Shown: piece by piece, positions 353 through 60,819 of the stretch
How positions within the stretch are numbered: the first letter of the stretch is position 1
Layout: each line of letters opens with the position of its first letter
Virus record (IMG/VR): IMGVR_UViG_3300045988_083782
DNA: 64,000 bases
Strand: one strand, 5' to 3'
Source: a virus
Notes under the pieces: generated by a model
Database searches by the model: none
Told to the model about the DNA's origin: nothing
What the model saw: the letters and a program-made list of their open reading frames with translations, nothing else
Translations under genes and position numbers: made by a program

Positions 353-358
353 AATTTG

Positions 359-1951: not shown

Positions 1952-1952
1952 G

Positions 1953-4732: not shown

Positions 4733-4772
4733 GATATGATAAAATTTGTAAATAATTCGATAAATAAAAACG

Positions 4773-4897: not shown

Positions 4898-4916
4898 CGT
4901 TGCCGTTATTCTTCTA

Positions 4917-5586: not shown

Positions 5587-6327
5587 TTATTCTGGTAAAA
5601 ATATTTTATCCCAATGAACGGTTACTTCATTGTTTTCATTGCTATCTGCAATTGCTATTTTCTGTCCTCTAAGATGTGGAGCTCGTGCCTCTCTTACTGA
5701 GTTATCGCCACCTTCGAACGAAATTATAGTTTCATTCTTTTTACGGTATACATAACCTACAGCATCAGCTTCCCCGCAGACAATATCACCTAAACGTCCA
5801 ACAAGGTCAATAGCCATTTCTGTGAGCTCTTCTCCATCTTTATTGATCATCTTATCTTTAGTATGACCAATTAGGATAAAGTTATCACATAGTTCCTTGA
5901 ACATATTAATAACTTTCTTTACAGCTTCTCTAATATAGAGATATCCAGCACCATTAGGTAACTGTCTAACATCTTCTCCTTTGAATGATTTACCCATTGG
6001 AGTTTGTCTATATAGAGATGCTGCAAATGGTAAACATATCTCCTCTAAACGAGTAGCATTATCAATTGCAATATACTTGTAAGGTCTCTTACCAGTCTCT
6101 GCAATCTTCTGTCTAATAGCATTTGCGATTTCTCCAAGATCATTGACTGTTCTAGCCTGAATTGAGAGGGCTTCGAGAAACTCGGAGCCACCCTCTAAAT
6201 CGACTATAAGACAGCCATCTAACTTAGAAATCAATGTAGTTTTACCAGATTTTGGTTTGCCAAATAAGATCAGAAATCTAGGATTCTGCACCTTTGGCGC
6301 ATTCTTTTCAGTAGGTAGTACTAACAT
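5587..6327 (-). CDS. RecA-fold ATPase, Sak4 / AAA_24-like
   Basis: 246-aa ORF with Walker A FGKPKSGKTT. Size and the adjacent SSB-like gene fit phage Sak4-type recombination ATPases. Confidence 0.6.
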   Translation of the reverse strand: MLVLPTEKNAPKVQNPRFLILFGKPKSGKTTLISKLDGCLIVDLEGGSEFLEALSIQARTVNDLGEIANAIRQKIAETGKRPYKYIAIDNATRLEEICLPFAASLYRQTPMGKSFKGEDVRQLPNGAGYLYIREAVKKVINMFKELCDNFILIGHTKDKMINKDGEELTEMAIDLVGRLGDIVCGEADAVGYVYRKKNETIISFEGGDNSVREARAPHLRGQKIAIADSNENNEVTVHWDKIFLPE

Positions 6328-6957: not shown

Positions 6958-7884
6958 TTATTTTTCGACTAAGTTACCATATTTCAATTCATTCTCGAAT
7001 TCTAGTATGAATGGTTCTCCATCTCTTACTTTAAGAAAATGAAGATACACTTTGTCTTTTACAGGTAGACGGTCTATACCATAAGCTGTTATATTTAACA
7101 ACTCTGGTCGAGATAGAGCTGTCACATAGTCGCTAGCCTGAAAAATAGCATCAGATGCTGCAAGATCACTACGCATTGGATAATGCATAGAAGGGTTGTT
7201 AATACGATCCGGTTGTTCAATATTTCGATTCATCTGTGAAATCTGTATAATACTCGTATTAGAAAGCTTCTTTTTACGAATAAACATTTTCTGTAAATCG
7301 ACAATAGTACCTCTTTCAGATTCACCTTGGCCCTCTACAAGCAGGGCATGGTCAAGTATAACTATAAGCCATTTGCCTTTAGCTATGTTCTCGTGAAAGT
7401 AGTCAATAGTTTTTTCCATGTTCTCTACAGTACTTGGCGTATCAATATAATATATTGGATACTTTTTGATCTTATCTGCAACTTCTTCAATTTTATTGAA
7501 TTCAGTATTAGATAGACTTTGATCAGAACTATAGAGTTCTGCTGTAGTCTTTCTCAGTTTATTACTGAGCTTTCTACCTACCTGTCTGTAAGATAACATT
7601 TCATAACTAAAAGATAGTATAACTATTTCCTGATCCGGATTTAAATCAATTAAGTCAGTTTCAAGCGTATTTGCAAATGCAGATTTACCACTACCACTGC
7701 CTCCAGCTATAGTAACAATCATATTTGGCTCAATACCACCACAACATACTTTATTAAATTTATTCCACCTAGTCTTAAGTGGAACAATCGTTTTGTCTTT
7801 TCTCTTGCGAATGTATTCTAATGATTCATCAGCTACTTCAGAGATAGACCTGAATGGTAAAGTATTAAAGGATTTTTGTTCCAT
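6958..7884 (-). CDS. DnaB-like replicative helicase (RecA-fold domain)
   Basis: 308-aa ORF with Walker A TIAGGSGSGKS and Walker B-like LIVILDHALL. Confidence 0.6.
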   Translation of the reverse strand: MEQKSFNTLPFRSISEVADESLEYIRKRKDKTIVPLKTRWNKFNKVCCGGIEPNMIVTIAGGSGSGKSAFANTLETDLIDLNPDQEIVILSFSYEMLSYRQVGRKLSNKLRKTTAELYSSDQSLSNTEFNKIEEVADKIKKYPIYYIDTPSTVENMEKTIDYFHENIAKGKWLIVILDHALLVEGQGESERGTIVDLQKMFIRKKKLSNTSIIQISQMNRNIEQPDRINNPSMHYPMRSDLAASDAIFQASDYVTALSRPELLNITAYGIDRLPVKDKVYLHFLKVRDGEPFILEFENELKYGNLVEK

Positions 7885-17726: not shown

Positions 17727-18122
17727 TCAACTATCATCTATATAACCACATTTTTCTCTCACTGTAGGTAATCCTTCTGTTTCAGCGATAGAGTTGTCAC
17801 TTTCTAATAATATAGGCTCCTGACTCACAGAGTCTTGTTCAGCTAATTCTGCATTCCATACAACGGATGTAGAATTACTCTGTGTGGGATGATTAGAAAT
17901 CTCTACTGCTACTACAGCTTTCTCAGGAGTTTCCATTAATTTCTTAATGTGTTTTACTCCTGCACCTACAACTAAGCCTAATACTAGTAACATAATAGCT
18001 CTAGTAAAGACTTTTGGGTCCTTCATGCACATCGCGATTACATAAAGAACGACTATTGCAAAGAGCAATAATCCAACTACATTTGCCATAATTTGTAAGT
18101 ATTGGTTATTTATAATCTTCAA
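17727..18122 (-). CDS. membrane protein, candidate anti-sigma partner
   Basis: 131-aa ORF with two hydrophobic helices. Its start overlaps the sigma-factor gene stop by 17 nt. Confidence 0.45.
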   Translation of the reverse strand: MKIINNQYLQIMANVVGLLLFAIVVLYVIAMCMKDPKVFTRAIMLLVLGLVVGAGVKHIKKLMETPEKAVVAVEISNHPTQSNSTSVVWNAELAEQDSVSQEPILLESDNSIAETEGLPTVREKCGYIDDS

Positions 18123-18657
18123 AAAGTTGTCTTAGTTTTGCTCTTGCCTTATTGAGACACGTTTTCACGGTTGCCTCAGGAATAGCAAGCTCTTCGGATA
18201 TTTGATGGTAAGACTTCCCATCTAGGCGAGCATAGATAAGATCCCTATACTTCTTACGAAGCAATGGAATACATTTCATAATAACTTCTACATTCTGACT
18301 TAAAATCATCTGTTCTTCAGGGCTCTTTGTATTAGAATCAAGTTGACCAGTATATTCATCATCATCAATATAGTTGTTAAGTTGCTCTTTTTTAGTTCTT
18401 CTTATATAGTCAATTGAAGTATTAACAGCAATTGTTTTTAACCACATTTCAAATGAAATATGACTTACATAAGTTTGAAGCTTCTCGTAAACCTTTGTAA
18501 ATACTACTGATGTTAAATCATCTGCTACATCACTGTTTTTAACAATGTTATAAATAGTAAACCAAATAGTTTTATTATACTTTTGATATAACTTTGAGAA
18601 TGCTTTCTCAGAACCGTCTCTAGCTTGCTCTACTAAAAGTTTTTCTTCCTCTTTCAT
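18106..18657 (-). CDS. sigma-70 family (ECF-like) RNA polymerase sigma factor
   Basis: 183-aa ORF. The region 2-like segment is DDLTSVVFTKVYEKL..WLKTIAVNTSIDYIRR. The region 4 HTH is SYHQISEELAIPEATVKTCLNKARAKLR. Confidence 0.7.
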   Translation of the reverse strand: MKEEEKLLVEQARDGSEKAFSKLYQKYNKTIWFTIYNIVKNSDVADDLTSVVFTKVYEKLQTYVSHISFEMWLKTIAVNTSIDYIRRTKKEQLNNYIDDDEYTGQLDSNTKSPEEQMILSQNVEVIMKCIPLLRKKYRDLIYARLDGKSYHQISEELAIPEATVKTCLNKARAKLRQLFEDYK

Positions 18658-20639: not shown

Positions 20640-20953
20640 TTATTAAGTTCTAATATTTTACAGGGTCGAGAGCTTACAACAACACCTAACCAATTTATTA
20701 CACGCAGGGATATGACGTGGCTTTTTACGGCATTAGCTTAGCCGTTTGACTATTCTCAAGCACTCAGGCGAGTATAGTCAGATACGAAAGTTTTGCCAGT
20801 TATTGGCTTTATTGACCTATTCATTCTCTTCTTATCGCTGTCAAAAACCATAATGCCCCAGGTTTATACCGTTCAAAGATTTAAGAACTTGAAGCACGGT
20901 ATCACACTATCAAAAACTCTAGTTCTATTTCCTTAGTAGCTTTTAATAAAGCG

Positions 20954-21066
20954 TGGAGCATGAGGGGGTCGAACCCTCGTCCAAACGACGAATCAAATGA
21001 CCTAACAGTCAATGTGAATAGGCAGTTAACCAAAACTACCTACTCTAATATAAACAAATACTCTCC
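20954..21066 (-). ncRNA. elongated tRNA-like RNA 4 (113 nt)
   Basis: The T-arm is GAGGG-TTCGACC-CCCTC. Acceptor GGAGAGT/ATGCTCC has 5 Watson-Crick pairs, 1 GU and 1 mismatch. There is a D-like hairpin GGTAG-TTTTGGTTAA-CTGCC, and I found no canonical anticodon arm. Confidence 0.3.
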
Positions 21067-22022: not shown

Positions 22023-22421
22023 AATATAGTTATTTAAACGAAATTCAAAAAGAAGACTACTCTACTTATTTCTAATACTTATTCGTAGATAACCCTTTTC
22101 CTTCTCCTGACCCTATTATAGGGTTGACCGTTGTATAGTCCATAGTACTCTAGCTCACGCTTGTGGCTTCCTTTAGGGGTTTGGTATATTTGTAGTCTTC
22201 GGGGGACTGGTTCACCATTTACTAACATTTAGTTGAGTAAAAAACCTACAGTCTATCTGGCGGAAATCCTGTAGTTCAAAAATTGTAAACTGTAATCCGA
22301 TCATTGATTGCAATTCTGCAAAGCACTTCTACGGTCATACGGATCCATTTTACGGATCTTTTTAGTTGAACGTTTTCGTGCCTGAGCTTTCTGAGAAAGC
22401 TTTGAGCCTGGATATGAGTCC

Positions 22422-23107: not shown

Positions 23108-23493
23108 TTTACATAATATTTAAAATTTTAATGTTAATACTAATTTGATGACGTCTACTATTCTGCACCATAGTAGAATGTTAATAAAGACAACTCTTTG
23201 TCTTGGTATTATGCAGATACCACGTTTGCTACATACACTAACTTATTAAGCATGAAATCTTGTAACTAATTAATCTTAACTCCCACTAAGCACTTTTAAA
23301 GTTATGCAGAAATCACGTGGAAATGAAATCTTACTAACTACCTGATTTTTACGTCCGCACGATCATAAGTATAGATGTAATAACTCTTTGCACGTCACGA
23401 TACATCTACGTGAACAGTGACTGATCTGAGTTTCTAATATACTTACTTACGCCCCACAGGTTTGTCATTTTCTGATGATTTAAAGTAATTTAA

Positions 23494-25773: not shown

Positions 25774-25908
25774 AATATCTGTATATTTATAATTATAAAT
25801 GTTTACAAATAAAAATAGCAATACCTACTTCACAGTAGCATTTGCTATTAAGAGTTCTCCTTCTATCGAGTTAATAAAACGAATACATACAATCACGCTT
25901 GATTGTAG

Positions 25909-25990
25909 TGCTAGTTCAAGGATTCGAACCTCGATGGATTCCTCCACATTCTCAATGAGAATGCGCGTCTACCAATTCCGCCAAACTAGC
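25909..25990 (-). tRNA. type II Leu-like tRNA with non-canonical anticodon loop
   Basis: The 82-nt cloverleaf starts with acceptor GCTAGTT/AACTAGC and discriminator A. The D-arm GGCGGAATTGGTAGACGC is typical of tRNA-Leu. The variable arm is TGGA-GGAA-TCCA and the T-arm is CGAGG-TTCGAAT-CCTTG. The anticodon stem CATTC/GAATG carries loop TCATTGA, giving C33 and a nominal anticodon ATT. That stem can also extend to 7 bp. Confidence 0.55.
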
Positions 25991-26912: not shown

Positions 26913-27682
26913 TGTGTTGATATAATAGTTAGATACCTAAAGAAATTTGACACTTATTGTTCAGTTAGTGTCAGACTGTCAAGCACCTCATTAAGCATAT
27001 CGAGGTAATAGCTTATTCCCATCTATACTTGCTTTGGTTAGTTGCTACTAAAGGATGCACTCACAGCGAACCTAACTGTGTCCTTACCATATGGTTTTAC
27101 TATTATAATCTATTAATGTGCATTTTACACCTAAAACTTAAAACTAAAGGAATTCTCTACTCTGGCATTATGACCCTAGGGATCAATGTTGTAGTAGCTA
27201 AGTATTTATGTGGATAGTCCACAACCTTTAGATTCACATAAGAAACTGGTGCCCTCAATGTCTTGGGAAGTTATTGAGTTTTTTAGAGTGAGATACACAT
27301 TAGGCAAAGCTCTCGAGTTTGTACGTGAGAGAGTACACAGATTTATAAAGGTCTTATATGCCCTTTTGACCTATAAATTCAATATAAGGCTTTGTAATTT
27401 CATCAAAAGCCTTTAGAAAACTTCCAGTATTTCACTATGACTGCATTTCACATAGTGTTACTTGAATCTCGCTCAAGTGCAAAGTTCTAATCTCGTAGAA
27501 CACAATATAGACTATTATTCTCTGGTCTATAAGCAGATAGTAACAAGCTCTTCGCTTCGGTGGTCTATGTTACCTAACCACGCTAAGACTTACATAGATT
27601 TTCACTATCGCTTAGTTTTCTATTAAATGATCATGATTATGAAAGTTTAGAGTATATACGCTTTCAACTTTTTAAATGATAC

Positions 27683-34528: not shown

Positions 34529-34603
34529 TCTCCTATGGTGTAATGGTTAGCACAGGAGGCTCTAACCCTCTTAGTCTGAGTTCGAATCTTAGTGGGAGTA
34601 CCA
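34529..34603 (+). tRNA. suppressor tRNA, Gln-type body, anticodon CUA (reads UAG)
   Basis: Hand-folded cloverleaf of 75 nt. The acceptor is TCTCCTA/TGGGAGT (6 pairs, U1-U72 mismatch). The D-arm is GTGT-AATGGTTA-GCAC. The anticodon arm is GGAGG-CTCTAAC-CCTCT with CTA at positions 34-36. The T-arm is CTGAG-TTCGAAT-CTTAG, and A73 and CCA are encoded. ATGGTGTAATGGTTAGCAC is typical of tRNA-Gln. Confidence 0.8.
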
Positions 34604-34860: not shown

Positions 34861-36945
34861 ATGGAAGACAGATAGATAGTAAGCAAGATTGATTTTTATA
34901 AGCCTATTAAGAATAGCAATAAGTTCAGAAAGCCAGCTCTATAGTACATAGAGACTGGCTCTTATTGTTCCTACCCTAAGAATACTACAGAGTATTTTCA
35001 ATTCTGGGATAAGGAAATTAGATATTGTATAGATGGTTATACTGCTGAAGACGGTGATTGGATAAGCGGGTATAACTATTTTTATTTGAACTATTGTCCT
35101 ATCTCTAGAGTAGTGTATGAAACATATACAGATAGATTTGGCAATCAAAAGAAACGCAAAGTAAAGAAAGTAGAATTTGCTGATTTCTGGGATTATGATT
35201 ACTATTACTTTACTGCTATATAGGAAGCTGAAGAATCAGGTACACATATGTGTGTATTAAAAGCCAGACGTCGTGGTTACTCCTTTAAAGGTGCAGCTAT
35301 GGCTTGCCGTAACTATTATCTAATACCAGATAGTAAGACATATATATATGCATCAAATAAACAGTATCTTACTGAAGATGGTATTCTTACTAAAGCGTGG
35401 GACTACATGGACTTTATTGATAAGAATACAGCTTGGGGTAAGAAAAGATCTGTTAATACTTAGATGCGTAAACGTGCAGCTGTTAATGTTAAAGACGAGT
35501 ATGGTAATGAAATAGAATTGGGTTACAAATCTGAAATCATTGGTGTTACTCTAAAAGACAATCCTGACGTAGTACGTGGTAAATCAGGTAAGCTTATCTT
35601 ATTTGAGGAAGCAGGTTCATTCAGTGAATTAGGTGCAGCATGGCAGATTGCTAGACCTTCTGTAGAACAAGATGGTGTAGCGTATGGTCTTATGTTAGCA
35701 TTTGGTACTGGTGGTGACCCTTCTTCAGCATTTGATACACTGAAGGACATGTTCTATAATCCTAAAGGCTATAATTGTTTAGGCTTCTAGAATATATGGG
35801 ATGAAAACCCAGGAGATAAACCGTGTGGATTCTTTGTGCCACAGTATACTAATATATCTGACATGGACGATAATGGCAATCGTCTGTATATGGATGTAGA
35901 TGGTAATACTTTGCATAAAAAGTCAATAGACAGAATATTAGACTTACGTAGAGATGTAATAGAAAATGCTACTAGCACTACAGCTGTAGATAGATATGTA
36001 GCAGAGCGACCTATTACACCTGCTGAAGCAATGCTCGAATTTAATGGTAACATCTTCCCTAAGAAAGAATTACAAGCACATTTAGCTATGATTCGTACCA
36101 ATCGTAGTCTACAAAATCACAAACAAGTAGGTGACTTGGTGTTTGGTGATGATGGCTTACTTAAGTGGATACCTAAGAAGAGAGGCGACATTACTAAATA
36201 TCCGTTAAGTAAAGATGATGACCCTACTGGTTCAATAGTAATATGGGAACACCCAGTATAGGACGCACCTGTTGGATTGTACATAGCGGGTATGGACCCG
36301 TATGACCATGATTAGGCTGGTACTAATTCATTAGGCTCTATGTTCATTTACAAGCGATTCTAGAGCTTTGAAGAATATTATGATATAATTGTTGCTGAGT
36401 ATACTGGAAGGCCTTCTACAGCAGAGGAATACTACGAGAATGCACGTAAACTATTGCTTTACTATAATGCTAGATTGATGTACGAAAATGAACGTAAAGG
36501 CATATTCCCATACTTTACTGCTAAACATTGTGATTACTTACTAGCAGATCAACCTGATATCATTAACGACATTGTTGGTAACTCAAAAGTATAGCGTAGA
36601 AAGGGTTGCCATATCAATAAGTAGATTAAGGACTGGGGTGAAGGTATGATAAAAGATTGGCTTAACGAAGAGTATGCTCCAGGCAAAAAGAACTTAACCA
36701 AGATACTATCAGAACCGCTATTGGAAGAACTTATAGGTTATAATGACAAAGGAAATTTCGATAGAGTGTGTGCGTTAATATAGCTAATGATTTATAAAGA
36801 ACAACTACATAATTTAGTTGTTAAAGAAAAGACTAAAGAGAATAGGAATAGGATATTATTTGATGGGCCAATATTTGCGCAACAGTGGTCAGATGAACCA
36901 AGTATGCCTAACCTATTTAATGATTCAAATACGTATACGTTTTAA
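34861..36945 (+). CDS. terL: terminase large subunit (11 in-frame TAG read as sense)
   Basis: A single frame runs from ATG 34861 to TAA 36943-36945 (694 codons). It links track ORFs 35248, 35464 and 35836 and untracked pieces. ATPase-region ARRRGYSFKG, KLILFEEAG and nuclease-region GMDPYDHD are present. All interruptions are TAG. Confidence 0.8.
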
Positions 36946-36947
36946 TT

Positions 36948-39449
36948 ATGAATAACATTAACATATTTCCTGCATAGAAAGTACCTATGTCTAAAAAGAC
37001 CAAGGAATGGAAAGAAAGCTGCGTGGATTATATTATTGGTCACAGTGCCTCTTCCAGAAATGGTAATAGTAGGAGTAGGGAAGAAGAGATGCAGACATAC
37101 TATGATCTGTATAATAGTATATACAATGAAAAAGATCTAAAGTATGTTACTAACCCATTTAAACAAGATGATGGGTTTCCTGCAACTGCTTAGGATTATA
37201 ATATTATTAAACCAAAGATAGATCTATTACTTGGAGAAGAGACTAAGCGCCCATTCAACTTTAGAGTAGTAAGAACTAGTGATATTGCTACTAGTGATCT
37301 ATAGGATAAAGCTAAACAATTACTTATTGATTATGTATAGGCATCTATTATGTCTAAACTTGGTCCCGAAGAGTAGGCTAGATATCAAGAGGCTTTACAG
37401 TCTGGTGAGATAATGACACCTGAGTAGATACAGAAATACTTAACAAAAGATTATAAAGATATTGCAGAAATTGCAGCACAACATAGTCTAAACTATTTGA
37501 AGCAGAAGTTAAATGTTACACATGAATTCTTCAAGGGGTGGAAGGATGCATTGATAGCTGGAGAAGAGATTTACTATGTAGGGGTAATTAATGGGGAACC
37601 TTATGTTGAAAGAGTAAATCCACTAAGTTTCAGTTATGAACAATCTGCTGATTTAGAATTCATTCACGAAGCATCTTGGTGCTGTCGTAAAATGAATATG
37701 TCTGCTACTGAGATCTATGACAGATTCTATGATAAAATGTCAGAGAAGTAGTTAAACGAATTGCTGGATATGATGGATGATGGTACCAGAGGAGGACTTA
37801 ATCCACAGGTTCGTAAGACATCTTTAGACTATCCGCATATTAAAACTAGAACTATTAATGGTTTTAGTTCTAACCCATTTCAAAATGCAGATAATATCAA
37901 TGTATGGCATTGTTGTTGGAAATCGTTTAAGAAGATTGGATTTGTTACTATCTTTAACCCTGAAACTGGGGCAGAAGAGGAATTTGAAGTAGATGAAAGT
38001 TATAAAGTTACAGGTAGGGAAGTTAACGTAGAATGGACATGGATTATCGAAGTATGGGAAGGATACAGAGTTGGAGAAGACCTATATATAGGTATACAGC
38101 CAGTTGAGTATCAACATATCTCAGCTGATAACCCTAATTCGCAAAAACTGCCTTATACTGGCGTAGTATACAACAATACCAATAGTTCTCCTAGGTCCTT
38201 AGTTAGTATGATGAAACCATTACAGTATATGTATATTGTAATATGGTATAGACTTGAGCTAGCAATGGCTAGAGATAAAGGTAAAGTAGTAACTATGGAT
38301 ATTACTTAGATACCTAAAAGCATGAATATTGATGTAGCAAAGTGGATGCATTACTTAGGAGCTTTAGGTGTTAACTTTGTAAACCCATATGAAGAAGGTT
38401 GGGATATACCTGGTAGAGAAGGTGGTAAGCCATCACAGTTCAATCAGATTACCGCATTAGATCTTACTATGGCTAATACTATTGATCAATACATTAACCT
38501 GATGGATAAGATTGAATCAATGGTATCCGAGATTACTGGTGTTACTAAACAAAGAGAAGGAGCAATTTCATCTAATGAATTAGTAGGTAATGTTGAAAGA
38601 TCTGTAGTACAATCCGCTCACATTACTGAACCGTTATTCTGGGTTCACAATCAAGTAAAGAAAGAAGTATTAAGTATGTTACTCAATACTGCCAAGTTTG
38701 CATGGAAAGATGGCGATAAGAGATGTATACATTATGTATTAGATGATGCTACACGTGCATTCTTGACTCTTAATGATGACTTCTTCTATGAAGATATGGA
38801 TATCTTTTTGGATGATTCTACTAAGAATCAGCAACAGTTAGAAGCACTTAAACAGCTTATGCAGCCTGCTATGCAGAATGGTGCTAGTCTATTAGATATC
38901 GCCGAAATCATTACAATGGATAACATTAATATGATTAAGAATCGCTTAGAAGACATTGAACAGAAGCGTATGGAACAGCAGCAAGCTTTGGAAGAGCAAC
39001 AGGCTCAGAGAGAACAGCAGATGATCCAAATGCAGAATGAAGTTAAGGAAGAGGAATTGATGATAAAAGAAGCAGAGATGGATCTTGAAAAGTATAAGAT
39101 AGATTCAGATAACGCTACTAGGATTACAGTTGCTCAACTTCAGGCTTACAGAGGATTAGAAGATCAAGATTAGAATGATAATGGTATTCCAGATACTATG
39201 GAAATCGCTGCACAAGCTTTAGCTGAACGTAAACAGGCATCTGAAGAAGCTGGTAAACAATTTGAATTCAATGCTAAACTTCGTGAACAATAGATGAAGA
39301 AAGAGATTGAAGACAAGAAGATTCAGCTTGAAAGAGAGAAATTAACAGCTGCTTAGAAACTACAAAAACAAAAGGATGAAGCGGCTATGCAAAGAGAAAA
39401 ACTTAAAGCAAAGACATCCCTAAAAAATAAAGTAGTAGGAGAGAAGTAA
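36948..39449 (+). CDS. portal protein (11 in-frame TAG)
   Basis: A single frame of 833 codons links track ORFs 36987, 37497, 37761 and 38322. The position right after TerL, the size and the Gln/Glu-rich C-terminal tail fit a portal. Confidence 0.65.
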
Positions 39450-39862
39450 TGGAAAAACTAGATCAATAGATAAGTGTAGTAAATAATAGATTATTACTAC
39501 CTTTAAAAGTAAATGGTAAATCTGTATACTTCTTAGTAGATACTGGCGCTTCTATTGCTTTAGTGGATATAACAAAAACTAAAGAATTAGGATATAAACT
39601 TGGCAGTAAACTATCTTCTACTATTGTAGGAGCTGGTGGAGAAGCATCAGAAGTTTATCATACTAAAGATTTAGACGTAGATTTAAATGGTCATAAGTTG
39701 TATCAGTTTGTAGCTACTAATATAGATAATATAAAGAAGTCTATTAAACAAAATACAGATTATGAAATATTTGGTATACTTAGTCTGAAACAGATGCAAG
39801 ATATTGGTATGATTATCGATACTGCATCCGGTAATATTTACTTTAAAGAAAAGGAGAATTAA
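39449..39862 (+). CDS. retropepsin-like aspartic protease (1 in-frame TAG)
   Basis: Reads MEKLDQ-TAG-ISVVNNRLLLPLKVNGKSVYFLVDTGAS, with the D-T/S-G-A active-site signature. The ATG overlaps the portal TAA. Confidence 0.55.
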
Positions 39863-39864
39863 TT

Positions 39865-40395
39865 ATGGCATGCGGAAATAATTATTATGTTTACAAACAT
39901 AGTACTCCTAACAATAAAGTATACATCGGAATAACTAAGTAGAATCCAAACCGTAGATGGAGAAATGGGCATGGATATAAAGATTCTCATCTATTTTTCA
40001 ACGCTATTATTAAATACGGATGGTTAAATATAACACATGAAATACTAAAGGAAGGTTTATCTTTTGAAGATGCGTGTAAATATGAAAAATATTACATAGA
40101 TTTATATAAATCTAACGATAGAGAATTCGGTTATAATTTAACTAAAGGAGGCGGAAGAAAGTCAGACCAGATCAATAAAACTGAATTTATCAAAATTGGT
40201 ACTGGTAAAAATAAAGGGAAAGAAATATTAGTATATAATGTTAACGGTGAATATATTGGTGAATTTATATCATCATATCAAGCAGCCAAGGTATTAAATT
40301 GCGATTAGGGGCATATTCGTAAATGTTGTCAACATAAAGAAGGGAGAACTAAACATAAAGGTTACATTTTTAAATATAAGGAGGAAATACAATGA
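39865..40395 (+). CDS. free-standing GIY-YIG homing endonuclease (2 in-frame TAG)
   Basis: YVYKHSTPNNKVYIGIT is followed by R..NGH and a YEKYYI..Y region. The C-terminal part is a DNA-binding-like segment SYQAAKVLNCD.GHIRKC. Confidence 0.65.
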
Positions 40396-46495: not shown

Positions 46496-46521
46496 GCTAC
46501 AAATAAATAATTTACAAGAAT
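46496..46521 (+). repeat. 26-bp direct repeat, copy 2 (runs into the homing-endonuclease ATG)
   Basis: Exact copy of 46456-46481. The last bases form the ATG at 46520. Confidence 0.85.
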
Positions 46522-47260
46522 GGATTACACTAAGTTTTTAATAGATGATAATTATTCTGTAGATTATGTCATTTACAGATTTAAAAATAATGTAAATGGA
46601 AAAGTCTATATAGGACAAACTACTAAAAGTTTACATAAACGAGTAATCTAGCATTTAACTAATAGTAGACCTACTACAAAAGCTCATAAAACTTATTTTC
46701 ATAACGCGTTGAACAAATACGGAATTGAAAATTTTAGTTTGGATATTATTGAGCGTTGTTCTTCGCAAAAAGAACTAAACGAAAGAGAAATATATTGGAT
46801 CGCTTATTATAAATCTACTGATAAAAAATATGGATACAATATAGATTCTGGAGGAAATCTAGGAAAGTCTACATCTAAGTTAAGTAAAGAACATAGACAA
46901 GCATTACTTGCTGCTAATCTTGGAAAACAAAGATCTAAAACTACTAAATAGAGACTTAAACAAGTTCATAAATAGTTATGGGAAGATCCTGAATTTAAAG
47001 CTAAACATATTGGTAATATTTTAAAAGTGGCAGGAATAAATAAAAAACCTGTATATCAATACGATTTAGATGGTAAGTTTATAAAGGAATGGCAATGTAT
47101 TTCTGATGTACAAGAAGCTCTATATGGAAATAAAAGAAACGGAAACATGACTAGAAATATTATTAACAGCAATAACAAAAATATGTTGGGTTTTATGAAA
47201 AATATGTCCATTTGGTCATTTACTTCACCAGCGGAAAGGAGGGCTTATCAGCGCACGTGA
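46520..47260 (+). CDS. free-standing GIY-YIG homing endonuclease (3 in-frame TAG)
   Basis: YVIYRFKNNVNGKVYIGQT, R...H and YNALNKYG are followed by a NEREIYWI region. It also has NUMOD-like KEHRQALLAANLGKQRS and C-terminal PVYQYDLDGKFIKEWQCISDVQEAL. The frame links track ORFs 46709 and 47027. Confidence 0.7.
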
Positions 47261-51322: not shown

Positions 51323-54300
51323 ATGAATAGAAATAACATATATACAGTTAATCCATTATATAATGGTTCTACTACTTAGACTACAGAAGATGGTTCTGTA
51401 CAAAGTGGTGGAACCACTATTATTTACCAATAGGGTGGTGGAACTGGTCTAACAGATGCTTAGAAATAGAAACTAGATGGTATTTAGGAAGGAGCTGAAG
51501 TAAATCAGAATGCTTACTCAAAAGTAAGATTAAATGGTTCTGATGCTTTAATAGTAGAAGCAAAGAATAAAACTGATATACTTAACATGTCAGGAGTATA
51601 TCCTATTGCTATTGCTATTAATGACAATGGAGGACTTGATTTTACAGTATCATCAGACCAATCTAATACTAATTCTGTAGTAACACAAGCATAGTTAAAA
51701 GCTGCTCTAGATTAGTTAGAAAAAGATCAGTATTGGAAAGTAGATGCAGATGGTAAGTTATATACTGAATTAGATGTATATTCTCACAAAGAAATCTCAG
51801 CGTATGGAGCTGGTACTGGTGGAGGAGGTACAGGTGGTGCAGGTGCATTATATGAATGTGCCGATGTACTTAGAGATGGTGATAAAGTAAAAGGAGCAGA
51901 AGTAGGCTCTGTATTATCATACAATGGTACACACTGGTATGCTATTCCACAATCAGCAATTGTTCCAGATCTTAGTGGTTACGCTACTAAATCATATGTA
52001 TCATAGGAGATTAATGACCTAATAGGTGGAGCTCCTGGTACATTAGATACTTTAAAAGAGATTGCAGAAGCATTAGGCAACGATCCTAACTTTGCAACTA
52101 CTATTACCAATATGATAAACAATATTGGTCTTAGAGTAGATGACATAGAAGCTAGAGTAGTATCTCTAGAAGATATGTTTGAATGGGATAAATCTGCTAG
52201 TGCTAGCGATTCATCTCTTTGGCGTATTAAGGCAAAGAGAGATTTATTTGGAGTAGGAGAAATCTCAGCGTATGGGTATTCAGCAGGCACAGTACCAACT
52301 GGTGCACAATACTTATATGAATTAAAGGATGTACAACTAACAGATTTAGCTACAGGTCAATTACTACAGTATAATGGAAGTAAGTGGGTAAACATAGATA
52401 AGAATGCAGTAGGTCTTAATGAAACAGAATTAGGTAGATATCTTACTAATAATAACTATGCTAAGAAAACTGATATTACTTGGGCTAACTTACTAAACAA
52501 ACCTACTACTTGGGCATGGGCTGATATTACTGGTAAACCTACTACATTAGCTGGATATGGTATTACAGATGCTGTAATTAGTTCTAGATAGGTATTAGCA
52601 GGTAATGGATTAACTGGTGGAGGAGCATTAACCTCTGATGTTACTTTATCATTAAATACTATTGGAACTGCTGGTACATATACTAAAATAACTACAGATC
52701 AATATGGTAGAGTAGTATCTGGTACTATACTATCTGAAGGTGATATACCTACTTTACAAATAAGTAAGATTAGTGGGTTGTAGTCTGCATTAGATAGTAA
52801 ACTCAATATAAGTGATTTCAATACTTGGTTTACTATTAATAGAGATACATCTGGTAATATAGTTAGTATATAGGCTAATTACAATCTATTCTCTGTGGGA
52901 GAAGTATCTGCATATGGATTAGGTGGAACTCAACCTTCTATTACCACATTAGCTGGATTAGATGATGTTAATATTAGTAACCCACAAAATAAGTAGGCAC
53001 TAATATATGATTCTGCATCAGGTAAATGGATAAATGGAGCAAGTGTTGGAGGAGGTAATATATCTCTTAATGGTACTGTTTATACAGCAGTGGATGGACT
53101 TATTACTTTACCTAATTTATATGAAAAAGTTGCAGGAGGTACTTCTTCTCAATTCCTCAAAGCAGATGGGAGTGTAGATGGGAATAGATACTGGGAATAC
53201 AGTCATGTGTCTGTTCCAGAATCTATAGACTTTACATATCATGATGGAAAGCTACGATTAATACAGAATAATTCTGGTACATCCGTTGGACCAACTATGT
53301 ATTGGGGAGGTCTATCTGCAATTAGTAATTACAATGGTTTTCAGCTTGTAGTATATGGAGGTACTACTGAAGCGTATTATATCAGAAAAACAGCTGATAA
53401 TAATACTTGGAGTGATTGGTCATAGCTAATAACATCTAGAAATTATGAAGGTATTGTAGGTAATAAGTTTGTATTAAAAGCAGGTGACACTATGACCGGA
53501 CGTCTTACTGCGCCTTTTTTTAGAGCGAACAATATGATCTCTGTCGGAGTTCCTGTAGAACAATTATCTTCGTCTAGAGCTGAATTAAACATAATCACAT
53601 TAACAAATAATCCTTGTGATATATGGATGGGAGCTAATAATCAAAGACATTGGTCTATTACAGCTAGAGATTCTACCGAAAATTATCAATTAGGTATATA
53701 CAATAGTAAAGTATCTAGTTGGAACGCTATCTTTAGAGACAATATTAATGACTTTTATGTTAAGACAGAAGTACGTGATACTTTCTTGGTCTTACCGACA
53801 ACAGGTGGTGGTTATAATGAGGGCATTAGAATAGGAAATGCTTCAAACGGATGGTCTAATATTCAATTCGGATCTCAAAATGCTTGGAACGGTAAAGTTG
53901 ATGGGCAATGGATTATAGGAAGAAATCCGGTGAAGTATTTCCAGATTTGTCTAGCTGGAACTGAAACTGCCAACACTTCAAAACCGGGTAAAGGAATCTC
54001 CATAGATATTAATGGTTATCTGGATACTGGTTATATCCGTCCTAATATAGATACTGAATATAAAGCGAATTATTTCTATGCTTCAGATGATAGTTTCATA
54101 AGAAGAACTACTTGGAATTACGCTCTAAACTGTTTAAACCAAAATCAATTAACTTTAGACCTTTCAAGCCTTGATTCTAATAAGTGGTATCCCTGTACTA
54201 TCAATGCTCCGGCTTACGGAGGAACCCCATTGAGAATCACTATATTTAATGGTCTTAGAGGTAATAAACCATCGTGGGCATCACACTCTTCCGGATTCTC

Positions 54301-55942
54301 TTTGTTACTGGATTATTATGTGACGGGTTCCGGTTGGGGAACGTTAAGTGCTGTTTCTAAGTTAGATTGGTATCATGGATCTTATGGTGGGGAAACTGCT
54401 TTTGGCGGTAGACAACAAAACACGATGGGATCTGCTGAGATTGTTTATTTGCGTGGTGGAGGTGTCTATTATTATAGAACTACTAATCACGGACAGTTAA
54501 CTGTTCATCCAAATGGGTATTCTTGGGCTAGCGGATCTTATACGTATAGTGCGGCAGTAAAAACCTCACAAGATAATTCTCCAATGGAGAAAACATTTGA
54601 TCAGGTATATTGGGCACCTGCAAATCTAAGAACAACAAGAAATTTATGGGGACAACCTTTTAATGGCACAAGCGATGTATCTGGAGCTTTGCAATATGTG
54701 ACTACCATTAATGCTTCTAGCACTATCTATACAGGTGGTGATATTATTGCTTACAGTAGACTGTTTTGTGGAGGTTATTTATATGTTCATAGAAACGCAC
54801 ATAGTAGTAGTGCAGCTCCTGCTATATCCTTAGCAATCGGAGACACTGATACCGGATTTAATTGGTATTCAGATGGTGCTGTACAGATTTATTCTAACGG
54901 GTCTGCTGTAGGAATGTGGACAGGTAGTGAGTTTAGATATGGTCACGGGTATTTTAAACAAGCTAGTGGAAACGACTATTCTCAATTAGGTATAATGGTC
55001 AACGGTAACGGTACTGCCAATACTATTAAACCTGGAATCGGTTTTCACCAACCAGGAGTATTTGCAGGATCTATAAGAATGAATGATGGTTCTACATTTG
55101 GACTCTATGCTCAGGGTGGTAGTGGTCTAGCAAACCTTAGTTTGAATGGATGGTATACAAATTTCGGTTATATAAATGGTGACGGAATACACCTTTCATC
55201 AGGTTGGCTTAGGACTGTTGGGGCTACAGGCTGGTATAATGAAACCTATGCTGGTGGTATGTACATGGCAGATGGTACTTGGATAAGAACTTATAACGGT
55301 CGAAAGTTCTATGTTGATAATGCAGAGGTAGATGCTATATTAACTCAGGGAGGTTTTAGAAGCAATGGCAATAGTCAAGTTGGCTTACAAATTGATGGTT
55401 CTGAATCTACTAGGACTATTATCTATGGAAAAATTGGTTCTACTGTAAATTCAGTAGTTGCCAGATATGCTGTAAACTGGTATTCTGAATGGGCACGCTT
55501 TGATGTACATCGAGGAGGAGGAACAGATATTCTAAAATTTAGCTGGAAACATAATGATACAGAATTAATGTATCTAGGTATGGGAGGTTATTTCCAAGTT
55601 AACGGTACTATTGTTTCTACAGGTGAAGTTACAGCATATTCTGATATAAGACTTAAAACCAATATTAAACCTCTAGATTATAAGGGAAGGTTAGCTCCTA
55701 AATGGTTTATCAAAGATAATAAGCCTAGTATTGGCTTCATTGCACAAGAGGTGTAGGCTTTATACCCTGAACTTGTTAAAGTAAACACAAGTACTATAGA
55801 GAATTACCTGAGCTTAAACTACGGTGCAATTACCGCAGTTCTCTCAGCTCAAGTAAATAAAGTAGAGGATGAAGTAGAAGTACTTAAAAATAGAATCAGA
55901 TAGCTTGAGAATGAAGTTGCTCTGTTAAAACAGAAACCTTGA
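51323..55942 (+). CDS. long tail fibre: constant N-terminal part plus currently expressed C-terminal module with S74-type chaperone end (15 in-frame TAG)
   Basis: A single frame runs from ATG 51323 to TGA 55940-55942, linking track ORFs 52112, 53090 and 53492. It has repeated GE[IV][ST]AYG motifs. The C-terminal SDIRLKTNIKPL...GFIAQEV is typical of the intramolecular chaperone peptidase domain of fibres and spikes. Confidence 0.75.
53153..53185 (+). repeat. 33-bp inverted repeat, left copy (inside the fibre ORF, encodes FLKADGSVDGN)
   Basis: TTCCTCAAAGCAGATGGGAGTGTAGATGGGAAT has its exact reverse complement at 58575-58607. Confidence 0.95.
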
Positions 55943-58574
55943 TCTCTAGCTCTCTTACTTTGTTTTTCAACGTAGTTACTTCATCTTCAACATGATTCAA
56001 CTATGCGGACAATACAGCAGTACATCCATTGTAGTTCAGAGATAAATATGGGCGATTCTTATCCTAGCCTAATACTAACTCTGGATACAATGCTTGTACT
56101 TCTTGTGCTATAAAACCTATTGATTGCTTACCATCCTTTACATAGTGTCTAGGTATAAGTCTTCCTCTATAGTTTAATGTATGTATATTACTTTTTAATC
56201 TAGCATCTGAGTATGCAGTTACCTCACCAGATGCAACCACACTGCCAGTTACTGATAGAGTACTTCCAGTAATTGTTACAACATAACTTCCTGTAGTATT
56301 GTTTACATCTCCATTTCTTCTACCTATATACATGTTTCCATCCTAATTAGAGTATATTCCCCATGTATAACTACGGTTAGCTAAATTAATTCCTATGTGA
56401 TTAGTGTTGTATAGCTTTATACCACAATAATGACCGCCAATACCCCAAGATCTGTAACCAGAGTTATATAACACTTTATTATTGTATACCTAAACCATAT
56501 CAGAATCAGTCATATAGATCCCACCTCCATAAGATTGAGAGTACCATCCGGTAGCACCGTCTGTACGTATCCAAGACGAAGCTCGAATATCACCAGATAC
56601 ATTTAATTTATAATCAGGACTAATTCCTCCAATTGCAACATTACCACCTCCATTACACATCTGTAAATGTTGACCTGATTTATGCTGTAAGTACAATCTA
56701 GAGTTCCAGTTATTTATCTCAGAAGAACATCCTCCGTCATTACCAGAATTATCAGTTTCTATACAAATATTTCTACTTTTTAAACCAATACTTGAAAAGA
56801 AGGTTTGCGCTGACCAATTGACGCCATCTTTATTACTATTATAAGCAGTCCATACTTCATAGTTTGTACCATAAGAAGTCCCATTAGAATTTTGGGTGCT
56901 TATACCAAATCTAGGTGTCCCATTTCTAATAAAATGTAAGGCACACATTGGAAGTACATCACCACCTGAGTATCCATTAATCCATAAGGTATCAGACCAA
57001 GGTCCTCCAAAACCAATACCAGTCATAGCAACTCTTAACCCCATGTGTTGAGAGAAATAAGTTTGCGGATTAGCTTGCGTTCCACCATTATATCTAGTAG
57101 GTAAATACGTAGCATACCCATCTATATTTCCAGTAATTGTATTCTTAGAGGTCAAGTTGGTAAATACCGCAGCTCCATTTGTTCTTATACTCCAATAAGC
57201 TTCCGCAGCTCCATCAGCAGAGCAAAGGTCTTGACAATATACCCATCCGGAATTCCCCGAAGATCCTATATACAGATTATGATTTAAAGAACAAACTCTT
57301 TGCCCATATATTATCGCACCAAAGATTTTACCAAATTGCCATGTTTCAGTACCTAAGAAAGAATTGCCTGAAGAAGATCCTTGCTCAAATGGAATTAATC
57401 CGGGTTTTGCTGTTCGTATCCAATCCGTATCAATATTTCCAACTTTACCCATTCCATAGTATCCATTCTTGTTTATAGCTCTGATGTAGTTATCATCATA
57501 TCTATTCATAGAAGTCTTAGGAACAAGTACAGCTCTTGATAGTCCTGTTTCTGCTGTTATAATAGATATACTAAATGAATTAATGACATAATGATTTGTA
57601 GTATTCTGACCACCAAATATTTGATATAAAAATACTTTAGGATAATGCCATTCATAAGTTAAACTCCCTAGTAATATACAACATCTACCTGCATTATCAT
57701 CGTAAGCAACTCTAACATCTCCACTAAATTCTCCATTAACTTGATAACTATAATTATAATAACCTGGACTAGCTGTATAATTATAAAAACTTACAGTTAT
57801 TTCAGAGCTACCTTTATTATCGTATTCATAAAGCATTATCTTATACACAGCCATAGTATTACTCCAAGTAATAGGCAATACTATCTTTATAGTTCCGGTC
57901 ATAGTACTACCGGTTCCATCAAACATAGAACCATTCCCAAAATAATTTGCTACAAATTTACCTCCTGACATATTTTGTGTAGACAAAACATCTGCGCTAA
58001 ATTTATTGCTTATAATCCAAGGAGCTTCAAACCATTCACCGCCTTGATTACCCATAAGTATTATTCCAGCTGTTGCACGATAAGCATCAAAATCAGTGTA
58101 AACAAATGCTACTTGTTGTGATCCATTTGCAGCAGAAAATACTAGTTTAGGAGGAGCAGAAAGAGATGGAGGATTGACAGCATCTGCTGAAATGAATAGA
58201 GAACCAGTCATGGTATCTCCAGTTTTTCTCACATACAATCCATCTGCATAATCTTTATCTAATACCATCTTCCATCCATTCCAAGAAGTGCCTATGCCTG
58301 TACGAAAACGAAGGTTAGCATTAGGATTATTTGTAGACGATGGTCCCGCTAATTGCCATGTTACATAGTCTACATTTGACCATCCACTTACAGATATACC
58401 ACTCCACCAAGTACCAGAAGGCATATCGTTTAGATTAAAGAAAGTGCTAATAGTTCTAGATTCAAAGTCTGTGGGAGCTGGGAAAGATTCTCTTCTATCA
58501 ATAACATGTAGAGAATTACTAACATTAGATTCTAAGACTTTATTCTAATTACCATTATATGCTAAGGCATACAA
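53186..58574. other. putative invertible tail-fibre segment (two convergent alternative C-terminal modules)
   Basis: The segment is bounded by the perfect 33-bp inverted repeat. It contains the 3' 2.76 kb of the plus-strand fibre gene and a startless minus-strand module. No recombinase gene was seen in the window. Confidence 0.55.
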
Positions 58575-58607
58575 ATTCCCATCTACACTCCCATCTGCTT
58601 TGAGGAA
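55896..58607 (-). CDS. alternative tail-fibre C-terminal cassette, no start codon in present orientation (5 in-frame TAG)
   Basis: The minus frame is continuous from the repeat (FLKADGSVDGN-LYALAYNGN...) through track ORFs 56490-58424 and 56064-56333 to TGA (rc of 55896-55898). It ends with SDARLKSNI...GFIAQEVQALYPELV. An in-frame TAA lies 11 codons upstream of the repeat, with no ATG, GTG or TTG between. Confidence 0.65.
58575..58607 (-). repeat. 33-bp inverted repeat, right copy
   Basis: Exact reverse complement of 53153-53185, in the same reading frame relative to its module. Confidence 0.95.
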
Positions 58608-58869
58608 CTAAGTTAAACAAATATAAATATGTATAAAATATTAGAAAATATAAGTAGTAGAGATCTATTAGAACACATATATGTAATGTAGTTATAGATA
58701 CTAAATAAACTAAATAAAATGGATGATGATGGTAAAGAATTTGCCTTAAATCTATTAGCTGATTTAATAGGTTCTAAGATAGTAGAGCGATAGGATTCTG
58801 TAATATTTGATTCTATCAATACTACAACTCGTAGTTAATTACGTTAAATATACATAAATTATATTAATA

Positions 58870-59313: not shown

Positions 59314-59338
59314 TAATAACTGCTCCCAACTCGTAATC

Positions 59339-59351
59339 GGGGGGGGGGGGG
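59339..59351. repeat. homopolymeric G13 tract followed by A6
   Basis: CGGGGGGGGGGGGGAAAAAA lies in the 54-nt spacer between the endolysin gene and 59368-59628. Confidence 0.9.
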
Positions 59352-59367
59352 AAAAAATACTCCGAAT

Positions 59368-59628
59368 ATGAAAAACAATATACAAAATGCAAATGGTGTA
59401 GACAACTCACTACAAGTAAGTCGTCTAAATGATGTCACTGGTACTAACTTCAAATTAGATGGAGATAGACCTTTCTTAATTAAGAATATTACTGATTCTA
59501 ATATAACATGTACTGTTAGATTGGCTAATATGAATACAACTGTTAGTACTGTATTCTATCCTGGATGGAATCCTGAATTAGTTGTAGAGATTGTTGGTGA
59601 AGTAACTGGTTTACAATATGGGAACTAA
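59368..59628 (+). CDS. hypothetical protein
   Basis: 86-aa ORF. Confidence 0.5.
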   Translation: MKNNIQNANGVDNSLQVSRLNDVTGTNFKLDGDRPFLIKNITDSNITCTVRLANMNTTVSTVFYPGWNPELVVEIVGEVTGLQYGN

Positions 59629-60598
59629 TATTGCTATAGGTAACTTAATAGGTAAGCACAATACTGATACACAGAAAATAAACTTTCCTTTCTCTAATTC
59701 CCTTGTAGATTATTGGAATTTTGGAGGGAAATCCAATTTTGATAAGGATAGAACAACTGTAACAGGACTGTTAGGCAACGTACTAACAGCATATAACTTT
59801 GGATGGAGTTTAATGTCAGGGTATGGAGGGTATAATGAAAATTACTTAAAGTACAAAAAGGCTGCTAATGTATTCGTAACAGATGATCATAGTATTACTA
59901 TAATGAATTTTGTTCCGGCCAATACTTTTGTCGCTTACCAATATGATACTGATCATATAAAAGCTACTAAAGTAAGAGTAACTGGATTAACTGCAACGGA
60001 TCAGCTTACTTATGAATATCGTCCTTCCGATGTAGGTAGTCGTGCAGTATTCCCAATTCCTGAAGATGGAGAATACGACTTACCCGAAAGTATTCAAAGT
60101 AGTTCTGGAACTCCGGGATATAGTGTTGGTTTTGCAGTTAGAAATGCGTTGACTAAGAATGTAACAATTGAGCAAATTCCTCTATATGAAGGAGCTATTG
60201 TTACGGATGGTGTTGATGATTATCTAAAGCTTGATAAAGTAGGGTATAAGGTGGGTACTATAATTATAAAATTTAAACCTATTAATATAAAACCCAATAT
60301 TGTTAATTCTATATTAAATATTCATACAGATGAAGTAGCTTTACAATATGATACTTCTGGTGTTATTAGCAGCAATTTTACAGCATATAAAAATTATGAA
60401 GAATATGGTGTTGGAATATTTAATGTAGATAAAAATGCTATAACTCCTCTTACATTAGGCTGTAAATTAAGTAATTCAGGTAGTCCAATGGAATACTGTA
60501 ATATGGCTCTTTATAGTATTGCTATTTACGACAGAACTCTATCTGATCAAGAAGTACAAGAAGTTATCAACTTTATGAATAAAGATAATAAATCATGA
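59618..60598 (+). CDS. hypothetical protein with LamG/concanavalin-like C-terminal signature
   Basis: 326-aa ORF. The ending ..MALYSIAIYDRTLSDQEVQEVINFM resembles the terminal strand of LamG-type lectin folds. Confidence 0.45.
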   Translation: MGTNIAIGNLIGKHNTDTQKINFPFSNSLVDYWNFGGKSNFDKDRTTVTGLLGNVLTAYNFGWSLMSGYGGYNENYLKYKKAANVFVTDDHSITIMNFVPANTFVAYQYDTDHIKATKVRVTGLTATDQLTYEYRPSDVGSRAVFPIPEDGEYDLPESIQSSSGTPGYSVGFAVRNALTKNVTIEQIPLYEGAIVTDGVDDYLKLDKVGYKVGTIIIKFKPINIKPNIVNSILNIHTDEVALQYDTSGVISSNFTAYKNYEEYGVGIFNVDKNAITPLTLGCKLSNSGSPMEYCNMALYSIAIYDRTLSDQEVQEVINFMNKDNKS

Positions 60599-60819
60599 AA
60601 TACGTAATTACAACAGTAGATTGGTGTAAACAGCATAACATCAAATTAGGAGAAGAAACCAGATATTCATTAGATGGTAAACATGTAATACTACATTATG
60701 ATCTAATTAAACCGGTATTACTAGGATCTGATGTAGTTGATATATACGAACACGATAGTGCAGAGTTAAGAGATATACTTAGTAGTAGTGAATGGTCTAA
60801 ACAAGAAAGTATATTGTAA
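60595..60819 (+). CDS. hypothetical protein
   Basis: 74-aa ORF. Confidence 0.45.
   Translation: MKYVITTVDWCKQHNIKLGEETRYSLDGKHVILHYDLIKPVLLGSDVVDIYEHDSAELRDILSSSEWSKQESIL

Follow-up and report, generated by a model that had tools for sequence, protein, structure and literature searches.

In the switches operated by serine invertases of the Din family, namely the G segment of Mu (Gin), the C segment of P1 (Cin), the P segment of e14 (Pin), and Min of p15B, a constant N-terminal part runs into a repeat of about 33-34 bp that lies in coding sequence. Behind the repeat are two opposed alternative C-terminal specificity parts, only one of which is expressed at a time. The inverted repeat of Mu is 34 bp long. 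We describe here a locus with the same outline in the tail fiber gene of a crAss-like phage, represented by a 64,000-nt stretch of viral DNA (IMG/VR record IMGVR_UViG_3300045988_083782) that we refer to as the window and whose numbering we use throughout. Behind the constant part of this gene, two large receptor-binding modules face each other between the arms of an inverted repeat, and related genomes carry the segment in either orientation. Among the phages of the human gut, the crAss-like ones are the most abundant. The way in which they track phase-variable Bacteroidales surfaces has yet to be settled (PMC8375218), and inversion in Mu and P1 leads to alternative host ranges, as indicated in a passage of PMC9881135 and by references cited in PMC12823448.

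Several other systems resemble parts of this arrangement. In shufflons, such as pilV/Rci of R64 and that of a BV01-like Phocaeicola phage, the C-terminal specificity part of an adhesin or fiber is likewise swapped by inversion, and the modules of our locus match the Shufflon_N domain. Flip-flop inversion by homologous recombination is known from plastid genomes and from the L and S isomers of herpesviruses, where kilobase-long repeats give rise to isomers of equivalent function. There, and probably also at our locus, the identity of the arms matters more than any specific sequence, the arms evolve in concert, and no dedicated enzyme takes part. The nearest published case in phages of gut Bacteroidales is the tail fiber shufflon of BV01-like temperate phages, where the core motifs are 10 bp long and a recombinase lies next to the cassettes (PMC13596623). 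Diversity-generating retroelements target the fibers of crAss-like and other gut phages (PMC12386605), and a survey of programmed inversions lists prophage tail fibers and finds recombinase annotations enriched near such loci (PMC9881135). In 2026, a method paper listed 16 viral inverton candidates, and the example it describes spans about 110 bp between 14-bp repeats (PMC13501310). In full-text searches of the open-access literature, we found no prior description of an invertible fiber segment in Crassvirales, which agrees with an earlier note on this DNA that had proposed an inversion switch and was not aware of one reported for crAss-like phages.

The arms of the inverted repeat (53148-53185 and 58575-58612) are 38 nt long, 95% complementary, and separated by 5389 nt. 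Each contains a perfect 33-nt core. The left core (53153-53185, plus strand) joins the constant part of the fiber gene to the variable module behind it, and the right core (58575-58607, minus strand) forms the first 11 codons of a silent cassette and adjoins the outer flank. These are exactly the coordinates and the spacing that the earlier note had given, and the translations of both copies carry the peptide FLKADGSVDGN in frame, as it had also reported. Shuffled versions of the window yielded no inverted repeat of this kind. This is the only inverted repeat in the window of at least 22 nt at more than 90% complementarity, the five others reaching 70-84%, and only two copies of it are found even when 7 mismatches are allowed. 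Sequence identity ends abruptly at the edges of the repeat. The same 33-mer forms both arms in 10 further two-cassette contigs.

With TAG read as a sense codon, the plus-strand open reading frame (ORF) at 51323-55942 comprises 1539 codons. The first 610 of these make up the constant N-terminal part (51323-53152), which ends in ...LPNLYEKVAGGTSSQ and is co-linear in all relatives irrespective of the module behind it. The remaining 929, counted from the repeat, belong to module A (53186-55942, plus strand; stop TGA at 55940-55942), the expressed receptor-binding module, and the exact 1539-aa fiber is on record in contigs of about 100 kb (P0121). Module B (55896-58574, minus strand) is the silent receptor-binding cassette, with 903 codons counted from the repeat (58607) and a stop at 55896-55898. 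The 3' ends of the two convergent modules overlap by 47 nt (55896-55942), forming the tail-to-tail joint of the segment. Module B lacks a start codon or N-terminal anchor of its own: its frame opens just 11 codons upstream of the repeat, where there is no ATG, and the first ATG (58424) lies 61 codons inside. A promoter and terminator scan of 55.5-59.4 kb, which does not cover Bacteroidales promoters, gave fewer promoter-like sites than shuffled sequence.

Modules A and B had been described as convergent paralogs of roughly 900 codons that share motifs and an S74-type chaperone end and are otherwise only patchily similar, a description that our comparison bears out. Both contain GDTMTG, GATGWY..Y.GG.YM, and a Peptidase_S74 end (37.2 bits at 55640-55780 in A and 30.2 bits at 56070-56210 in B, against a Pfam cut-off of 22). 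They are 41% identical over the last 280 or so amino acids and 28% identical over the first 130 or so, and their central regions of about 500 aa are unrelated. The C-terminal region of both modules matches PDB entry 6f45, and no other region matches a solved structure. The segment contains only these two module ORFs, each with its Peptidase_S74 end, and no separate assembly genes of the U/U' type. The GATGWY stretch inside both variable modules also matches Shufflon_N (PF04917), with 34.0 bits in A (55175-55384) and 32.0 bits in B (56457-56657) against a cut-off of 27.5. Shufflon_N is the constant region of the PilV adhesin, so the match points to a domain shared by conjugative-pilus tip adhesins and these fiber tips; a PilV/tail-collar fusion has been noted (PMC9881135).

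Related contigs, which we designate by L numbers, carry the segment in both orientations. In L063, the 5389-nt segment is inverted end to end relative to the window at 98.3% identity, and 79 of the 94 mismatches fall within two small patches. L063 encodes a 1513-aa fiber (P0002) in which the constant part is fused to module B, and module A is silent there. P0002 was retrieved by searching the protein collection with module B, and its length is exactly that predicted for the fusion. The earlier note had expected inversion to create an in-frame fusion of the constant part with the alternative module, and this is the arrangement found in L063. The spacing of 5389 nt is the same in the window, L030, L063, and L068; L030 and L068 share the orientation of the window, opposite to that of L063. 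Likewise, L031 and L035 differ by a clean inversion of 5089 nt, with positions 1-5089 aligning to 5089-1 at 96.5%, and L019 and L065 have a co-linear constant part and outer flank with both modules inverted between them, in the absence of the 33-mer repeat.

When the metagenome collection was scanned with the 33-mer, two further junctions of the inverted state came up. In L014, the constant part (99.8% identical to the window) is followed by the repeat and module B (99.3%), and in L016 the outer flank (99.9%) is followed by the repeat and module A (97.3%). The comparison of related genomes that the earlier note had proposed as a check has thus revealed both orientations, between samples (L063, L014, L016). 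Among 14 two-cassette contigs that we tabulated, the A-type module is expressed in 6 and silent in 5, and it is silent in L036, L038, and L070 besides. In the protein collection, each module is common in the fused as well as in the silent form. For B-like sequences, there are fusions of 1357-1579 aa and silent calls of about 770-850 aa, with as many as 28 members to a cluster. Module A occurs in about 30 fusion clusters (at least 90% identity) and in silent 881-aa clusters of 4, 18, and 50 members. It is almost certain that the segment inverts in nature across these repeats.

The two arms match in every lineage, though the sequence of the repeat differs from lineage to lineage. An allele with two substitutions (GGG to GGC and GTA to GTG) is shared by the two arms in L066 and likewise in L067, and in L012 the identity of the arms extends to 39 nt. 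L019 and L065 have repeats of a second class, located 9 codons downstream at the motif TD(S/T)RYVLKTGDTM(T/G)G: that of L019 has a 35-nt perfect core within 44 nt at 93%, and that of L065 is a perfect 57-mer at the TDTRYVLKTGDTMGG motif. In these two contigs, the codons for FLKADGSVDSN are divergent and do not occur in the silent cassette. L019 and L065 are inverted relative to each other across repeats of this second class, so the 33-mer is not required for inversion. The silent cassette invariably starts at the exact point where the repeat meets the same outer flank. The possibility that the outer flank of L019 holds a decayed 33-mer was ruled out by comparison with L065; the sequence in question is the start of the second cassette class, LTQSST... 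A loose core, TCCTYAARRCAGRWG, can be read off the 33-mer and the class-II repeats alike.

The peptide FLKADGSVD(G/S)N is kept in L019, L048, and L052, where it is not the repeat, with at least 7 nucleotide changes. Therefore, the DNA identity of the 33-mer is not forced by the protein that it encodes. The suggestion in the earlier note that crossing over at the repeat accounts for its maintenance receives support both from the preservation of the peptide where the DNA has diverged and from the co-variation of the arms. Concerted evolution is seen in that the arms are identical within lineages while the repeat varies between them, and inversion has taken place on both the 33-mer and the class-II repeats. 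The repeat also doubles as a mosaic breakpoint between genomes: between L063 and the window, the constant flank is 83-87% identical, the segment 98.3%, and the outer flank 98.9%. By eye, the 33-mer is unlike the hix/gix consensus, in which two inverted half-sites surround a 2-bp core within a 26-bp crossover site. Its dyad symmetry does not exceed that of shuffled sequences, in an underpowered test in which the hix control was likewise not significant. Its 24-nt core is absent from the genomes of 185,579 bacterial and archaeal species, one genome per species.

Some assemblies break at the repeat. The end of L017 coincides with the last base of the repeat, whereas L008, a contig of that same assembly, begins 22 nt earlier, and the 55-nt overlap between them is typical of a graph branch at k=55. 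L049, from a k=99 assembly, begins on the first inner base of the right arm, and L006 and L051 likewise end at the edge of the repeat. A search with an outer-flank pattern for the other end of L006 yielded no new sequence. Given that a 33-nt repeat alone cannot break graphs built with longer k-mers, two continuations must have been present in those samples. In the case of L049, both continuations must be two-cassette genomes. These breaks are no more than suggestive of a mixture of orientations within samples.

Silent cassettes are maintained: their modules are intact ORFs of 764-929 codons, with dN/dS between 0.20 and 0.59 in comparisons of expressed with silent and of silent with silent modules. 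Decay is seen in L032 (8445-8991), where the right arm is kept and the silent cassette has been reduced to 72 codons and a 145-aa S74 remnant. In L052 (approximately 6980-7271), an in-frame mini-cassette fuses the first 40 or so codons of a module to the last 70 or so, and no partner repeat was found in the expressed gene of this contig. Single-module genomes contain, between the stop of the module and the outer flank, 68-177 nt that correspond, in antisense, to the 3' end of a second cassette. One junction (window 55828/58611) recurs in L003/L011, L020, L021, and L023; another (55863/58614) is found in L018 and L022, and a further one (56119/58642) in L007. These remnants suggest that single-module genomes descend from two-cassette ancestors via deletion.

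The phage itself belongs to Crassvirales, Suoliviridae, Uncouvirinae. Its major capsid protein falls into the crAss capsid family (PF23898, E = 3e-216) and is 88-91% identical to those of cr114_1 and relatives, among them the genus Aurodevirus, and the crAss tail ring protein (PF25710) is also present. Identical copies of window proteins occur in hundreds of collection blocks from human gut metagenomes, in contigs of 96-101 kb, and L030 is 100% identical to the window over the fiber locus. The record name of L030 contains the run ERR1190631; L035 belongs to ERR1190927, L063 to ERZ27300330, and L049 to ERZ28018512. A megablast search of the locus against GenBank phages returned two short fiber fragments only and no close relative. 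One contig, L044 (ERZ28574578 scaffold_89), is 202,035 nt long, about twice the size of the phage genome, and may be a concatemer or an assembly duplication.

TAG is a sense codon in the late plus-strand genes (34861-64000), and early minus-strand genes are almost devoid of in-frame TAG. There are 11 in-frame TAG codons in each of the ORFs at 34861-36945 and 36948-39449, and 15 in the fiber ORF. Because the late genes read TAG as sense, their ORFs appear broken under the standard code. A suppressor tRNA with the anticodon CTA (34529-34603, plus strand; ARAGORN and Rfam) is encoded directly upstream of the late block and is needed for reading the in-frame TAG codons of the fiber gene and of both modules. 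The first gene beyond the segment (58629-58838, plus strand) has 69 codons, 3 of them in-frame TAG, and forms the fixed outer flank; it is called in all relatives and starts 21 nt past the perfect core of the repeat. A second variable spot lies just 3' of the fiber locus, at 59314-60813 (ORF 59618-60598, 326 aa). This block is missing in L007, L010, L012, L013, L021, and L023, and the ORF is 317-339 aa long elsewhere. L033, L034, L037, and L039 all begin some 270-280 nt upstream of the block, a pattern suggesting that heterogeneity broke the assemblies there.

We noted several other features of the window. In the intergenic gaps of the early region, Rfam places a Hatchet ribozyme (23340-23479, 87.5 bits), a RAGATH-7 RNA (26948-27146, 147.8 bits), and a RAGATH-9 RNA (22050-22210, 127.9 bits) on the minus strand, all above their gathering scores. 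ARAGORN predicts an 83-nt tRNA with the unusual anticodon ATT (25908-25990, minus strand), which Rfam confirms as a tRNA, and a permuted tmRNA (20665-21045, minus strand) that has no Rfam support and is probably a false positive. A sigma-70-like protein with regions 2 and 4 is encoded among the early genes (18106-18657, minus strand). An ORF resembling retroviral-type aspartyl proteases (39449-39862, plus strand) lies immediately 3' of an 833-aa ORF, a putative portal gene. Two GIY-YIG/NUMOD1 homing endonuclease genes lie within the structural module (39865-40395 and 46520-47260). An extra HNH/NUMOD4 endonuclease gene lies between tail genes in L020 (16431-16982) and L021 (16519-17058) and is absent from the other loci compared.

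The earlier note had found no invertase or recombinase gene in the 64 kb. Consistent with this, a Pfam search of essentially all window ORFs found no Resolvase (PF00239), Phage_integrase (PF00589), Recombinase, or transposase domains; it identified replication genes, structural genes, and the two GIY-YIG endonucleases. Beyond its right-hand end, the window is continued by tail genes as far as Ring_1, after which come proteins of 1398, 557, and 576 aa and a 4406-aa giant; beyond its left-hand end lie an AAA ATPase, three small ORFs, and then a 1482-aa protein. The search of the rest of the phage genome that had been recommended gave the same result: no recombinase domain was found in nearly the whole of the roughly 99 kb, as covered through neighboring loci, with the giant proteins covered by precomputed hits and the 1398-aa protein excepted. 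The phage has no reverse transcriptase. It does encode candidate recombination proteins. A protein of AAA_24 (PF13479, E = 2.1e-26; 5587-6327, minus strand), which we take to be the family of Sak4-type phage single-strand annealing proteins, may catalyze recombination over short homologies. A DUF1064 nuclease (PF06356, E = 2.6e-11; 359-748, minus strand) is a candidate for resolving junctions and weakly resembles phage endonuclease I (PF05367, E = 9e-4, below the cut-off). A 327-aa protein encoded just outside the window is PD-(D/E)XK-like, by sub-threshold matches, and may also act in recombination.

The explanation that we favor overall, with a probability of roughly 60%, is a two-cassette invertible segment whose flip is driven by homology. 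The shaft (51323-53152) ends in a short linker motif, and the segment behind it contains two complete, self-chaperoning (S74) modules lying tail to tail. Only the module that adjoins the constant part would be translated; the other lacks a start codon and begins exactly with a copy of the linker motif, which is the inverted repeat. Recombination between the arms would flip the whole segment to give a fiber of 1539 aa with A or of 1513 aa with B. General recombination functions would presumably carry out the flip, either the phage set of AAA_24, DUF1064, and PD-(D/E)XK-like proteins or host RecA. Heteroduplex repair during flips would keep the arms identical, and the same island of identity would provide the left crossover point for module exchange between co-infecting relatives. 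At the level of the population, alternative adsorption specificities would result, plausibly directed against the phase-variable surfaces of Bacteroidales.

We favor a homology-driven flip because the arms match yet vary by lineage, two different repeats invert, no recombinase is found, and the same site is used for exchange between genomes. That the inversion proceeds in this way, with no dedicated invertase, seems probable to us, and we consider it likely that the segment serves as a receptor or host-range switch. For the proposal in its entirety, in which an invertase-free flip-flop of complete modules acts as a population-level host-range switch and the 33-57-nt linker repeat is both the inversion site and a universal joint for module swaps, the odds appear to be even.

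A site-specific switch of the Mu G/Gin, P1 C/Cin, or shufflon type, whose dedicated serine or tyrosine recombinase would come from the host, from a co-resident element, or from the phage itself as a protein too divergent for Pfam, would account for the same anatomy of a constant part, a repeat in coding sequence, and opposed alternative C-termini. At 33 bp, the repeat is nearly as long as that of Mu (34 bp). At least 11 two-cassette contigs agree in its boundaries, identity stops abruptly, and the loose core TCCTYAARRCAGRWG is shared with the class-II repeats. Bacteroidales, moreover, encode trans-acting master invertases, which PMC9881135 mentions as well. We nevertheless regard such a switch as unlikely. 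No recombinase domain was found in the parts of the genome searched, and the core of the repeat occurs in none of the 185,579 species genomes. Moreover, the sequence, length, and position of the repeat vary by lineage while the arms co-vary, one of the inversion pairs uses a repeat other than the 33-mer, and the 33-mer, in the underpowered test described above, shows no excess of dyad symmetry. The lack of an invertase and the fact that the sequence of the repeat is not fixed make a Mu/P1-type mechanism improbable. The opposite possibility is that there is no switch, the second cassette being a by-product or reservoir of recombination during co-infection, the inversions rare and non-adaptive accidents, and a single fixed module the one used. 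Most relatives indeed have a single module, L032 and L052 contain decayed cassettes, orientation correlates with allele group, and orientations are known between samples only. This explanation, which we think quite unlikely, does not readily accommodate at least three independent inversions at low divergence, silent cassettes that are intact with dN/dS of 0.2-0.6, arms that are identical down to a shared two-substitution allele, the large number of silent copies (clusters of up to 50 members), or contig breaks exactly at the edge of the repeat.

Two simpler accounts fare worse. Gene callers report an 842-aa ORF for the minus-strand module, starting at the internal ATG at 58424, and ORFs of 769-881 aa in relatives, as would be expected if this module were an independent gene and both tips were made at once. 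However, the frame is open for 61 codons upstream of that ATG, starting exactly at the repeat, and the same 61 codons lie within the fused fiber of genomes that express B. The product would lack the 610-aa constant part, and the gene would run antisense to the whole late-gene block, so that we consider an independent gene very improbable. Finally, short-read assemblers can mis-orient segments between inverted repeats, and the inverted arrangement or the second cassette could in principle have arisen from mis-joining at the repeat. We reject such an artefact because the k-mers used (55 to 141) exceed the length of the 33-nt repeat, which individual reads and k-mers therefore span, and because the arrangement recurs over many independent assemblies and assemblers, the 5389-nt spacing being unchanged between the window, L030, L063, and L068.

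A number of observations do weigh against a homology-driven switch. The boundaries of the 33-mer are constant over many genomes and identity ends abruptly at them, as at gix and cix, and it is possible that a divergent recombinase invisible to Pfam, or one encoded by the host, is at work. A length of 33 nt is near the lower limit of efficient homologous recombination. The contig breaks at the edge of the repeat are equally expected from co-existing strains, and no pair of isomers from the same sample was found among all of the loci retrieved. Orientation also tracks the allele group, with the window-like A allele expressed in 4 of 4 distinct contigs and a second A allele silent in 3 of 3, which indicates that flipping is too slow to randomize the orientation seen in consensus assemblies. 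Lastly, about 80% of related genomes, sampled regardless of the repeat, have a single module, and this, together with the decayed cassettes in L032 and L052, indicates that the second cassette is dispensable.

The locus offers a concrete and testable answer to the question of how crAss-like phages follow the changing surfaces of their hosts, for one widespread lineage that is present in hundreds of public assemblies. If the homology-driven switch is correct, it extends the Mu/P1 paradigm to a strictly lytic phage with no invertase, it implies that a few dozen bases of identity suffice for a switch at the protein level, and it provides a phage counterpart to the phase-variable surfaces of Bacteroidales. 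The identification of the receptor-binding modules and of the exact joint at which they are exchanged should be of use in host prediction and in the engineering of crAss-like phages. It also serves as a warning that consensus assemblies show only one of two possible fibers.

Compared with the Din-family switches, the locus follows the logic of Mu G and P1 C that the earlier note had ascribed to it in its anatomy and in the natural occurrence of both orientations, though not in having an invertase or U/U' genes. No invertase or other recombinase is adjacent, which leaves no invertase gene to house a Fis-dependent recombinational enhancer; the repeat varies by lineage and, by eye, is not of the hix/gix type. 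Its modules of about 900 codons each carry an intramolecular S74 chaperone, whereas the Mu/P1 type has U/U' assembly genes within the segment, and the phage, a crAss-like podovirus of Bacteroidales, is lytic and recodes TAG. By its lack of an invertase, its apparent site type, and its lack of separate assembly genes, the locus falls outside the Mu G/P1 C family. Nor is it a shufflon. A shufflon has a tyrosine recombinase next to it, several small cassettes, and core motifs that are short and directional, whereas here there are two large cassettes and two repeats, no recombinase was found, and the similarity to Shufflon_N lies away from the crossover. In contrast to the plastid and herpesvirus systems, the repeats measure 33-57 nt and lie inside a gene, and a flip alters the protein that is made. 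The C-terminal Peptidase_S74 domain of both modules is shared with self-chaperoning fibers and spikes of the endosialidase type. Diversity-generating retroelements likewise vary the receptor-binding end of gut phage fibers, but they do so by mutating a few codons via reverse transcription, whereas the crAss-like locus swaps whole pre-formed modules by DNA inversion.

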